Shown piece after piece: positions 3,001 to 6,000 of a DNA stretch of 12,685 nt. How positions within the stretch are numbered: position 1 is the stretch's first letter; each line of letters begins with the position of its first letter. Origin of the DNA: a virus (Duplodnaviria > Heunggongvirae > Uroviricota > Caudoviricetes); IMG/VR virus record IMGVR_UViG_2634166457_000024, positions 1 to 12,685 of that record; one strand, 5' to 3'. A program made the position numbers.

Positions 3001-6000
3001 CTTTCGTAACGCGCATTTATGATTTCCTGCAGGATGGTTATCTCTGTAGGCGTGCCGAACTGCACACCAACCTCATCGATGATCAGCAGGTCCAGTGAGG
3101 CGAAATGAGCGAGAACTTCATCCTCGGTACGCTCTGAATTGTGGCGCCAGGTATTTTTCACAGCGCGGGTCAGTCGCATAACATCCGTAATTTCGACGGT
3201 CGCCTGGTGGTGGCGAATAATATTTTTTGCCATTGATACAGCCAGATGATTTTTCCCGGTACCACAATTGCCAATCATGACCATGCTGGTACCCGCAGCA
3301 AGACACTTCTCCCATGAACCGGCATAGCGCCGACAAGCCTCAAGATTTCTCTGTGCGTCAGCATTCACCGCCTGATAATTCTCAAACTCGCAGTTCTGGA
3401 AGCGGCGGGCAATACCAGCCCTGTCGAGTAATTCATGAACTTTCAGGATGCGTAACGCCTCCTGTACCTGATCCAGCTCATTCGCAATGCAGGTCGGGCA
3501 ACCAGACACCCGTTTGATGGTTTCCCCACGAACATCTGGCCCTTTCAACACCAGACGTGTGTATTTCCCGTGTTTCTCACACTCAGCAGTATCCTCGCTT
3601 GTCAGCCAGTGTTCACAGCGCCACGGACGCTTCCCGACACGGGCAAACTGCATCTCCTCCTCCAGTTCCGCCCTGCGGTTGAGCAATTGCGCTTTGTCGT
3701 GTTGTGCGTAGTGTTTTTTTAACTGTTCAAACATTGTTCATCACCTCGAAAAATCACCAGTTGAAGTTCGTTGAACCGTAGTCCTGCTCACTGAATCCCG
3801 AGATCGGGAGGCCGGTAGTTCGCCCACCTCCGGGAGCGGCTGGCTGTTGCCAAGATTCCTCGAAGTGACGATCGGGTCCAAAGAACGTCGCAGCCTGCTT
3901 CACGAACTGTGTGCCGATATTTCCGGTAGCTCGTACCCAGGCGGCATACCGCTTCACGCCATCAAGCATGGTCTCCGGTTTTATTCCCTCCCTGATACGG
4001 GCTTTCCAGGCTTTGAAGGCTGCTGACTTGGAATTGCCACCAGCACGTTTGGGGTATTCCTGCCAGGCCTGTTCAGATTCCGGTGAATATTCCTGTCGGG
4101 CAGAACGCGCTGGTGCAGACGCGTCAGCGGATGCGCCAATAGTTGATTCATTGACTGGTTCTTTGACTGGTTCAAAAGAGTGACTGGTTCTGGGTGAATC
4201 TCCTGCACTACCCCCTGGTGCAACTCTTGCACCACCTGGTGAATTTGCTGCACTAGGTAGTGAATTATTTGCACTACCACCTGGTGAATCTTTTGCACCA
4301 TCAAGACGAAGAAGATAAATATTGCTCGAGTTGCCTTTTTCACCTTTCCGGGAAACTTTTTTTACCAGTCCCGATTCACAAAGAGCCGTAATATGATTCA
4401 TCACAGAACGTTTGCTAATCTCGCACTGATCAGCAATATGCTGATAGCTGGGCCAGCACTCGCCCTGATCGCTGGCATTATCAGCCAGCTTAATCAGAAC
4501 CAGTTTTCGCAACGGATTTCCCACGCGAATTTTCATCGCTTTCACCATCAGCTCCATGCTCATAACACACCTCCCAGGCGTTTAAACATTTTCCCGGACT
4601 GAAACACTGCCAGTGGATAGCTAAGGGTATGAGTGCGTCCCTGAACCTGACAGACAACCTTCTGGCTTTCTGTATTGACCAGACAAACCCGCAGAACGTG
4701 ACCGTTGCTGATGGTGAACCACTGCCCCACACAGGGGCAACGGTTGTATCGGTGATACAGGGAATTAACGACGCGGCGAATCATGGGTGCACCTCCCATT
4801 GATTACGGCGGAAAGCGGTGTGACTGAGGCTGATTTCTGCCTCATGGAATGCTTCAATGCAGCTCTCGTAGTACCGCATTGTGCGCAGACTTAACCCAAG
4901 CTGAAGCATCATCAGACCATCAAGGGTGATGTAATAACCATGCAGAGAATCACCATAGATGTGATAAGTACCCGGTATGAAATTGCGGATAAAAAATTCG
5001 CGCGAGCAGTTCAGATACTCGATTTTGTCGACGATGTTCTGGTGCATGCGCTTGAAATGACAGGCAACATGCAGAGAGAAAATAACGGCCTTGCCGTTGA
5101 CGGATTCGATTTTCAGGTATGGGGAAGTTGGGACTGTAGCCATGATGGCAGCCTCCGTATGCAATGGATAACTTCCACCACCGGAAACGCCAATTTCGCT
5201 GGTGGTGAACTGAGCAGGGTTGGCGTAACCGGCGCATACGGAAACCGGCGCACCTTTCGGTGCCCCCACCCAGCCCACCATAATTTGGGTATAGCTGAGT
5301 TGTAGCAACAAAAAAGACGCTAACGCGCCAATTGTCGCCGTATGCAATTCCAGGACGCCAATCCCGGCACCCGCTTTATAAGGTGCCTGAACAGTGTAAC
5401 GTCCCGAAATTGCAGAATCAATATTTAGGCTTGAAACATTCATATGCTTACTGGTATTTTTGTTGACGTTCTTGGATTCTTGGGCCTGCTTTATGCAGTT
5501 GCCTGTATCAACGTTGAGCGAGCCGGGTCACTACCCGGCTTTTTTTCACCGCTGCCAACCAATAACCTGAAATAACCCCATTTTCGGGTGATACCAGCGA
5601 GTCCCTCGCGGTTCTGCTTCCTCCATAACCCGATAAAAAGCAGCCATAAACGGTTCCACAGCAACAATTGCGCGACGTGATAACAATCCGTCCGGCGTCA
5701 TAAACTCGTGGGTATCTGTAGGAAGTTGATAAGCGTTCACCAGATTGCGGCATTTATCATCTGACAAACCGGTTTTTGCTTTCAGCTGGCGATATCCGGC
5801 ATAGCCCTCACGAATGTTGCCCTTTTTGATTTGCTCAACTGTTTCGGCAACATGGCTGACTTTTTCTTCCACCTGAGTGATCCGTTTCTGCTGACGAACG
5901 GCTTCAAGAGCCATCGCTGCAACCATTTCGATTTCGCTCATTGGCTTACGGATCTGTTCTTCCAGTTCGCGCCAGCGATCTACCAGGCGAGCAGTGAATT

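Follow-up and report, generated by a model that had tools for sequence, protein, structure and literature searches.

An open reading frame (ORF) of 220 codons runs on the minus strand from an ATG at 5443 to position 4781 of a 12,685-nucleotide (nt) stretch of Caudoviricetes DNA (IMG/VR record IMGVR_UViG_2634166457_000024, positions 1 to 12,685; this whole stretch is here called the window). Judged by its likeness to characterized elements, the locus is very likely a P4-type RNA immunity module set within nested, in-frame genes and placed before a Rha-like gene and the replication genes. Two RNA genes of known families, IsrK/seqA-like and C4/CI-like, lie within the N-terminal half of the ORF, and an internal start at 5143 opens the C-terminal half as a product of 120 amino acids (aa). 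The initial annotation had left the choice between a two-domain protein with an internal start and a shorter protein of about 120 aa preceded by structured noncoding DNA, and had assigned the ORF to no recognized family. The last point was wrong, as the ORF matches Pfam Phage_ASH and PHROG 995 and has 1,837 homologs, mostly of 220 aa, named "ash family protein." The features of the module are listed below; SD denotes a Shine-Dalgarno sequence.

5443 to 4781, minus strand: long ORF, 220 codons (220 aa), probable analogue of P4 eta; begins 5' of the candidate promoter and crosses both RNA genes into the Rha domain.
5393 to 5421, minus strand: candidate constitutive promoter; -35 TTGATT at 5421-5416, 17-nt spacer, -10 TACACT at 5398-5393, +1 at G5386.
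5310 to 5386, minus strand: IsrK / P4 seqA-like RNA, with target copies a1 (5362-5355) and b1 (5348-5338).
5329 to 5310, minus strand: intrinsic terminator of IsrK, stem 5329-5316 and U run 5315-5310 (GGCGCGTTAGCGTC plus T6).
5198 to 5285, minus strand: C4 / P4 CI-like antisense RNA, with b' and an anti-SD stretch at 5246-5234 (GGUUUCCGUAUGC) and a' at 5226-5220 (ACGCCAA).
5280 to 5282, minus strand: AUG of Met55, homologous to the Gifsy-1 orf45 start and in frame with the Rha ORF.
5150 to 5196, minus strand: downstream target, a2 UUGGCGU at 5193-5187, b2 plus SD GCAUACGGAGGCU at 5162-5150.
4781 to 5143, minus strand: short form, 120-aa Rha-like protein, start ATG 5143, SD GGAGG at 5157-5153; in the position of P4 kil.

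When the window was searched against Rfam at gathering thresholds, two minus-strand matches were obtained within codons 20-82 of the ORF, that is, within its "Ash" half. One was to isrK (RF01394; 5386 to 5310; 61.2 bits, gathering 50; E = 2e-11; full model) and the other to the C4 antisense RNA (RF01695; 5285 to 5198; 80.7 bits, gathering 45; E = 6e-15; model positions 1-87), and the identity of both RNAs was thereby shown. Hairpin 1 of IsrK carries compensatory changes among relatives. C4 folded alone reproduced the Rfam structure at -45 kcal/mol, and in its closing stem and two hairpins 97.8% of alignment cells were paired, with 14 pairs changed on both sides, compared to 35-47% paired in slid controls.

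The sequence features given in the initial annotation were all found. The ORF ends in an ATGA overlap with the downstream gene; the sequence ahead of ATG 5443 (...AAAAATACCAGTAAGCAT / ...ACCAGTAAGCAT) holds no good SD; and the in-frame ATG at 5143-5141, which encodes Met101, follows GGAGG (5157-5153) with a spacer of 8 nt. The 10-bp direct repeat AACCGGCGCA lies exactly at 5227-5236 and 5243-5252 (two matches versus 0.03 expected; 0 of 200 shuffles gave two), the dyad arms CACCACC (5177-5183) and GGTGGTG (5201-5207) are present, and residues 1-100 are, by eye, G/A/S-rich with a single hydrophobic stretch, SFLLLQL. Read as RNA, the copies of the direct repeat form hairpin 2 of C4, each supplying one CCGG-containing arm, the CACCACC of the dyad is the acceptor-like 3' end of C4 (CACCACCA, the sole sequence sign bearing on RNase P processing), and the peptide SFLLL is the translated U run of the IsrK terminator.

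The lead to these RNAs came from an alignment of 63 distinct homologous ORFs, in which two segments of "Ash" covaried with identical residues (HT/HT, IK/IK, ST/ST, LS/LS, and NI/NI). Such behavior is rare for proteins. In the DNA, the two segments are an 11-nt direct repeat with copies 183 nt apart, the second of which abuts the internal SD. The C4 loop (5246-5234) and the single strand ACGCCAA (5226-5220) have their complements in two target copies, a1/b1 within IsrK and a2/b2 at 5193-5150, where b2 reaches into the SD of ATG 5143. A mechanical repeat search of the window recovered the complementary copies, both as direct repeats that the initial annotation had missed (CCGTATGCAAT at 5155-5165 and 5338-5348, and ACGCCAAT at 5187-5194 and 5355-5362, each with a complementary copy between its members) and as inverted repeats (I2 and I3). 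Covariation was computed across 37 alleles with slid and shuffled controls. For the pairing of a1b1 with a'b', 98.0% of cells were paired and 13 of 15 pairs were changed on both sides; for that of a'b' with a2b2, the corresponding values were 98.2% and 12 of 15. Slid controls gave 24-47% paired (all three pairings), and none of 500 shuffles matched either the observed percentage paired or the covariation score. Nine b-allele triples were found, each with 8 of 8 positions paired, and a and b alleles reassort. These results showed a three-way complementarity with covariation, in which a1b1 is able to compete with a2b2 for C4. In the fold of the read-through transcript (z = -4.8), the probability that GGAGG is unpaired was at most 0.01.

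Two side observations concern the same pairings. The dyad arm GGUGGUG (5183-5177, minus strand) is invariant in 37 of 37 alleles and present in Gifsy-1 also; it may pair with the C4 3' arm CACCACC, taking the role of the C4 5' arm, as a possible precursor switch. Moreover, whole isrK-C4-Rha cassettes stand in tandem in some prophages, with three copies at a spacing of 656 bp in one locus (L213) and two copies in each of two others (L192 and L193). The three cassettes of L213 differ in the b2 allele (ATCAAGG, AACATAGG, and CATACGG), so that one phage would hold several RNA specificities.

The comparison of codon periodicity and conservation between the halves, and the profile search of both, had been proposed in the initial annotation and were carried out. 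Over codons 8-100, the ratio of nonsynonymous to synonymous polymorphism (pN/pS) was 0.84, and variability at codon positions 1, 2, and 3 was 0.44, 0.43, and 0.40, showing no periodicity. Over codons 101-220, by contrast, pN/pS was 0.19 and variability was protein-like, at 0.135, 0.133, and 0.389. Two loci (L074 and L043) keep the nucleotides CCCCTGTACGTCTCACCACC identical in the stretch between compensating 1-nt and 2-nt deletions, where their frames differ. These results showed that the N half evolves as RNA and the C half as protein; only the latter, the 120-aa product from ATG 5143, is conserved as a protein. The N half had been described as the low-complexity half of a protein, which it is not; it holds the isrK and C4 genes. 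In the profile search, the match to Phage_ASH (PF10554; aa 16-108; 63 bits, gathering score 26) fell on this half, on a region with the high pN/pS given above, flat codon-position entropy, and a peptide frameshifted over kept nucleotides, and thus not on a protein domain. The Phage_ASH profile corresponds to isrK plus C4, conceptually translated.

It is highly improbable on these grounds that the ORF encodes a genuine two-domain protein, with a folded and functional Ash domain (aa 1-100) fused to Rha and made from ATG 5443. Such a protein would account for the Phage_ASH score above gathering, for the match to phrog_995 over the full length of the ORF (E = 4e-90), for the number and common length of the homologs, and for a frame that is kept open. 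Yet its N half would lack codon periodicity at a pN/pS of 0.84, its "conserved motifs" are the promoter, the RNA stems, and the terminator, and its covarying "residues" are the RNA target copies. Alleles with compensated frameshifts keep the nucleotides and alter the peptide, the P4 prototype of the Phage_ASH family overlies the CI RNA, and other C4 families have stops in the frame. An AlphaFold2 model (30-sequence alignment; mean predicted local distance difference test score [pLDDT], 37.5) gave 23-30 over the N half and 34-62 over the C half, a weak point against an Ash fold, as the model was poor overall and too poor for a fold search; a PDB sequence search with the ORF returned a chance match only (E = 0.63). 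According to the initial annotation, full-length homologs with a conserved N half would count against the short protein. Such homologs do exist, yet their conservation is at the level of RNA, and the reading of a short protein stands.

A kinship of the Ash half with the P4 antirepressor epsilon was considered and ruled out. PF10554 was taken as a marker of epsilon by De Sousa et al. in a survey of P4-like satellites. Because epsilon is PF25738 in current Pfam and PF10554 falls on the ORF over CI (P4 7888-8584; L082), PF10554 matches mark the RNA immunity region and not epsilon.

To follow the frame upstream of Met101, loci were re-sampled by the C half alone, and 80 of 87 relatives were found. 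In all 80, the ATG of Met101 is present with a purine-rich SD at 8 nt, and at least 104 codons are open in frame upstream of it. In a test that assumes independent sites and equally stop-prone frames, the stop-triplet sites in frames 0, +1, and +2 numbered 0, 16, and 25 over all 279 nt before Met101 (0, 6, and 11 from Met55 to Met101; 0, 8, and 10 in IsrK plus spacer; 0, 7, and 8 in the promoter and 5' end) and 21, 29, and 22 further upstream. The avoidance of stops reaches back some 300 nt from Met101, roughly to ATG 5443, and ends there. Across five divergent RNA allele classes (52-65% identity), indels always amount to a net multiple of 3. An ATG stands at codon -99/-100 in six distinct 5' contexts, some of them with strong SDs; GGGAGGTG or AAGGAGGTG is carried by relatives ahead of the ATG equivalent to 5443. 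An ascertainment effect of protein searches was ruled out by the re-sampling on the C half only, and these results showed that selection keeps the long frame open.

With this, each of the two readings in the initial annotation was right in part. The reading of a 120-aa protein behind structured noncoding DNA held for the nature of the sequence (two Rfam RNAs in codons 20-82, and Met101 with its SD in 80 of 80 loci) and failed in that the frame is kept open; the reading of a long ORF with an internal start held for the architecture (a stop-free frame from about ATG 5443, in the layout of P4 eta/kil) and failed in that the N half is no protein domain.

The same data bear on whether the long ORF is purely an artifact of annotation, only the RNAs and the 120-aa protein being real and the openness an accident of G+C-rich conserved RNA. 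This we consider improbable. Frame +1 is stop free too in about half of the alleles and ATG 5443 has no SD in the window, as an artifact would have it, but loci chosen irrespective of the N half show no stop site in frame 0, versus 41 in the other two frames, and the avoidance ends about 300 nt before Met101, close to ATG 5443. An artifact would also fit the P4-like satellites, where the frame continues as an ORF for 150-300 codons across small genes, plainly without meaning, and the records of APSE and Klebsiella phages, in which no ORF is annotated over the module; it does not fit indels that in each of five divergent allele classes net to a multiple of 3, or a conserved ATG at the 5' boundary with strong SDs in some contexts, and P4 eta is an experimental precedent for a real long frame.

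Database records vary in what they annotate here. The RefSeq record viewed in detail (L170, Escherichia coli O145:NM) has only a coding sequence, named "ash family protein," with neither isrK nor C4 marked as an RNA, and the other listed RefSeq matches bear the same coding-sequence name; the APSE-7 record has both RNAs annotated and no ORF over them. Five P4-like elements (L181, L234, L190, L195, and L226) have small genes downstream (MATTP..., MANRKQ...); in them, the "Ash" frame continues for 150-300 codons, meaningless and out of frame with the real gene, and is a further source of spurious long ORF calls.

For the C half, the profile search gave a weak match to Rha at aa 123-203, with 25.5-27.5 bits for Pfam PF09669 (below the gathering score of 29.9) and 36.8 bits for TIGR02681 (cut-off, 45.95; E = 3e-9). 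A match to phrog_518 (E = 3e-11) supports a Rha-like C half. The precomputed Pfam domains of close homologs include PF09669 in most cases, sister loci hold a canonical Rha (94-107 bits) at the position of the C half, and the first residues of stand-alone Rha proteins fall at query residues 101-116. Because of the phrog_518 match, the canonical Rha in sister loci, and PF09669 in close homologs, we call the C half Rha-like, most probably a divergent relative of Rha.

The geometry of the candidate promoter equals that of the sequence upstream of Gifsy-1 isrK. Its region is almost invariant in relatives and, when translated, gives the "protein motif" IDSAISGRYTV. We infer that it is used as an internal promoter, the counterpart of P4 PLE and Gifsy-1 PisrK. 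Initiation inside the ORF (about 5421-5393, +1 at 5386) would then yield the IsrK/seqA-like RNA, with most transcripts ending at the terminator (5329-5310), and transcripts reading through it would include the C4/CI-like RNA (5285-5198). The b' loop of C4 with its anti-SD stretch, together with the a' strand, would pair either with a1/b1 in IsrK or with a2/b2 over the SD of ATG 5143. Pairing with a2/b2 would hide the ribosome binding site (RBS) of the 120-aa Rha-family protein and, by analogy with P1 and P4, would also stop transcription before the replication genes. Early-operon transcripts from further upstream would carry ATG 5443, and ribosomes starting there would cross the terminator and the C4 region. 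In the resulting 220-aa form, the N half would be an unconserved passenger, and, by analogy with P4 eta, translation of this form may let transcription reach the replication genes despite RNA immunity. Both the direction of regulation and this antitermination by translation of the long form are modeled on other phages, and the Rha-like protein probably acts as an antirepressor or regulator. Translation through the RNA module is already known from the published P4 eta mechanism, and the nested arrangement is not new.

Several points weigh against a P4-type module. The Rha scores lie below threshold, and the stop counts carry the assumptions given with them. The candidate promoter fits the consensus at 8 of 12 positions, a promoter scan did not list it, and the SD of ATG 5443 is poor in the window. 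In other C4 families, for which loci were sampled by RNA motif, stops are often found inside C4 in the corresponding frame; translation through the module is a trait of the Rha-linked family and not of C4 modules generally. The mechanism is drawn by homology from other phages. Lastly, the IsrK of Gifsy-1 activates, and what the C4-like RNA does there was left open (PMC4825925); in the window, the module may therefore either repress or activate.

Downstream of the ORF lie the following features.

4783 to 4781, minus strand: stop TGA of the long ORF, overlapping ATG 4784-4782 (ATGA), the start of the next gene.
4560 to 4784, minus strand: 74-aa gene (phrog_1153), with the ATGA overlap and its own SD, GGAGGTG, at 4796-4790.

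Replication genes follow 3' of the 74-aa gene, and the genes of the minus strand run cro-like, Rha/Ant-like, 220-aa ORF, 74-aa gene, O-like, DnaC-like, and DnaB-like; a CI-like repressor gene is encoded opposite this operon. The Rha/Ant-like gene (5546-6295, minus strand), a second Rha-domain gene with an Ant-like C-terminal part, lies just upstream of the 220-aa ORF in the position of lambda cII. It matches Pfam Rha with 34 bits as well as phrog_63 and has no C4 module in front. The plus strand, opposite the early operon, carries at 5431-5552 a promoter-like sequence (TTGAAA-18-TATTTT, 5431-5460) and, beyond it, a strong intrinsic terminator (GAGCCGGGTCACTACCCGGCTT with a T run, 5520-5550). 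Between them they would yield an RNA of some 85 nt (fold z = -2.95), antisense to the interval that separates the two Rha genes, which recalls lambda oop; a hydrophobic ORF of 43 codons (5444-5575, plus strand) overlaps it. Nothing meaningful was found in Rfam at a permissive threshold for the plus-strand RNA at 5465-5552. A 15-nt inverted repeat, 87% complementary, joins 5343-5357 in the a1-b1 linker of IsrK with 5400-5414 in the promoter spacer. The promoter-side arm (5400-5414) is present only on transcripts started upstream, for which an alternative fold is possible; the arm is invariant, so that covariation cannot probe the pairing.

The window is 85-89% identical to Eru7-type Shiga toxin 2 (Stx2) phages, and the gene is very common, with similar DNA in 1,536 of 5,426 complete E. 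coli genomes. Reading the locus as a P4-type module gives testable predictions on the control of replication and induction in Eru7-type Stx phages, and the "Ash domain," where used as a protein marker, is to be treated as a translated RNA gene. More tentatively, and with rather less confidence than in the module itself, we suggest that it could be a second, repressor-independent lock on the replication operon. In a lysogen, C4 RNA would shut off the Rha-like regulator and what lies downstream, and only upstream transcripts translated from ATG 5443 would pass. The reassorting a/b specificities (at least 9 and 7 alleles) could then define RNA heteroimmunity classes among Shiga-toxin-type prophages, and tandem cassettes could stack specificities in one phage.

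Among known systems, the closest in layout is P4. In the P4 sequence, the Rfam C4 match is the CI immunity RNA and the isrK match is seqA, in the same order as in the window and at similar spacing. The eta frame of P4 opens ahead of the constitutive promoter PLE and extends across seqA and CI, with kil beginning past CI (PMC10111431); when eta is translated on transcripts from the late promoter, immunity-dependent termination is prevented (PMC10111431, citing Forti et al. 1999), an effect known for P4 only. When the P4 sequence was checked, the frame was open from the MMM start, with 197 codons for eta and 65 aa for kil. As in P4, the long ORF of the window begins 5' of the internal promoter, a short in-frame ORF lies 3' of C4, ahead of the replication genes, and Phage_ASH falls on an ORF over the CI-type RNA (in P4, the obsolete "cI protein" ORF). 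The kil junction of P4, ...CAGGAGGCTGCCATCATGGCTAC..., is the same as that of the window, the two sharing GGAGGCTGCCATCATGGCTAC, and the distance from the 3' end of C4 to the start codon is 55 nt in both; this likeness of sequence showed the homology of the junction to that of P4 eta/kil. From the same frame layout, the identical junction, and the equal distance, the window ORF would be an eta/kil analogue with a Rha-like domain in place of Kil. P4 is a satellite, whereas the module here resides in a lambdoid, Eru7-like prophage that encodes CI and Cro; the short form of the window is a 120-aa Rha-like protein versus the 65-aa Kil, ATG 5443 is uncoupled from any upstream gene in the window, and epsilon, alpha, and other P4 genes are absent.

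Gifsy-1 also gives isrK and C4 matches in Rfam, in the order and spacing of the window. In its isrK-orf45 (STnc1160)-anrP locus, IsrK activates in trans, and experiments demonstrated that orf45 is translated (Hershko-Shalev et al. 2016, PMC4825925). The module is likewise followed there by b2, an SD, and an ATG (AAUCACCGGAGGGCGUCAUUAUG versus UUGCAUACGGAGGCUGCCAUCAUG), the frame of orf45 (MVGRMGEPKGSPV...) is the "Ash" frame in the same AUUAUGGUGGG context, and an antirepressor-type gene lies downstream. The logic of Gifsy-1 might therefore apply in the window, with a short IsrK trans-activating an otherwise inactive read-through mRNA and a start at AUG 5282 giving a 166-aa fusion. We regard this as possible, though on balance doubtful. 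It draws support from the common isrK-C4 order, from the AUUAUGGUGGG context and frame shared with orf45, from what was demonstrated in Gifsy-1 for IsrK and orf45, and from the ability of a1b1 to compete with a2b2 for C4. However, AUG 5282 lies within the acceptor-like stem of C4 and has no SD, stop avoidance reaches well upstream of it, and AnrP is not homologous to the Rha half. Such logic is also compatible with, and does not exclude, the P4-type module proposed here. The Gifsy-1 locus differs in that the orf45 frame is closed on its 5' side and stops on anrP in an ATGA overlap, a translational coupling, whereas in the window the frame is fused and open from upstream. It lies beside antQ and not in an early operon, and AnrP is an ORF6N protein and not Rha. 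The Rha half was also considered as an AnrP homolog, which was ruled out (BLASTP E = 4).

In Eru6, Eru7, and Eru9 Shiga toxin phages, "Rha/Ash" proteins of unknown function are described next to cI, and in Eru7-type Stx phages, whose regulation is described as unknown, the gene lies between cro and the replication genes (Fagerlund et al. 2022, PMC8951638). The gene of the window likewise sits beside cI/cro and the replication genes. That paper takes Ash for a protein domain, and its passages concerned with Ash make no mention of RNA genes.

The C4 RNA family was founded on the c4-icd-ant region (immI) of P1 and P7. As in the window, a'/b' are complementary to a1/b1 and a2/b2, with b2 over the RBS of the first downstream gene, and the downstream target a2/b2 of the window is the counterpart of P1 a2/b2 and of P4 seqC. 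Allelic a/b specificities are common to the family of the window and to P1 and P7, which are known for their heteroimmunity. P1 and P7 differ in that no IsrK-type terminator RNA is annotated upstream and in that the downstream genes are icd and ant. Across the phages examined, the module always precedes an antirepressor-type gene, be it Rha, ORF6N, or Bro-N.

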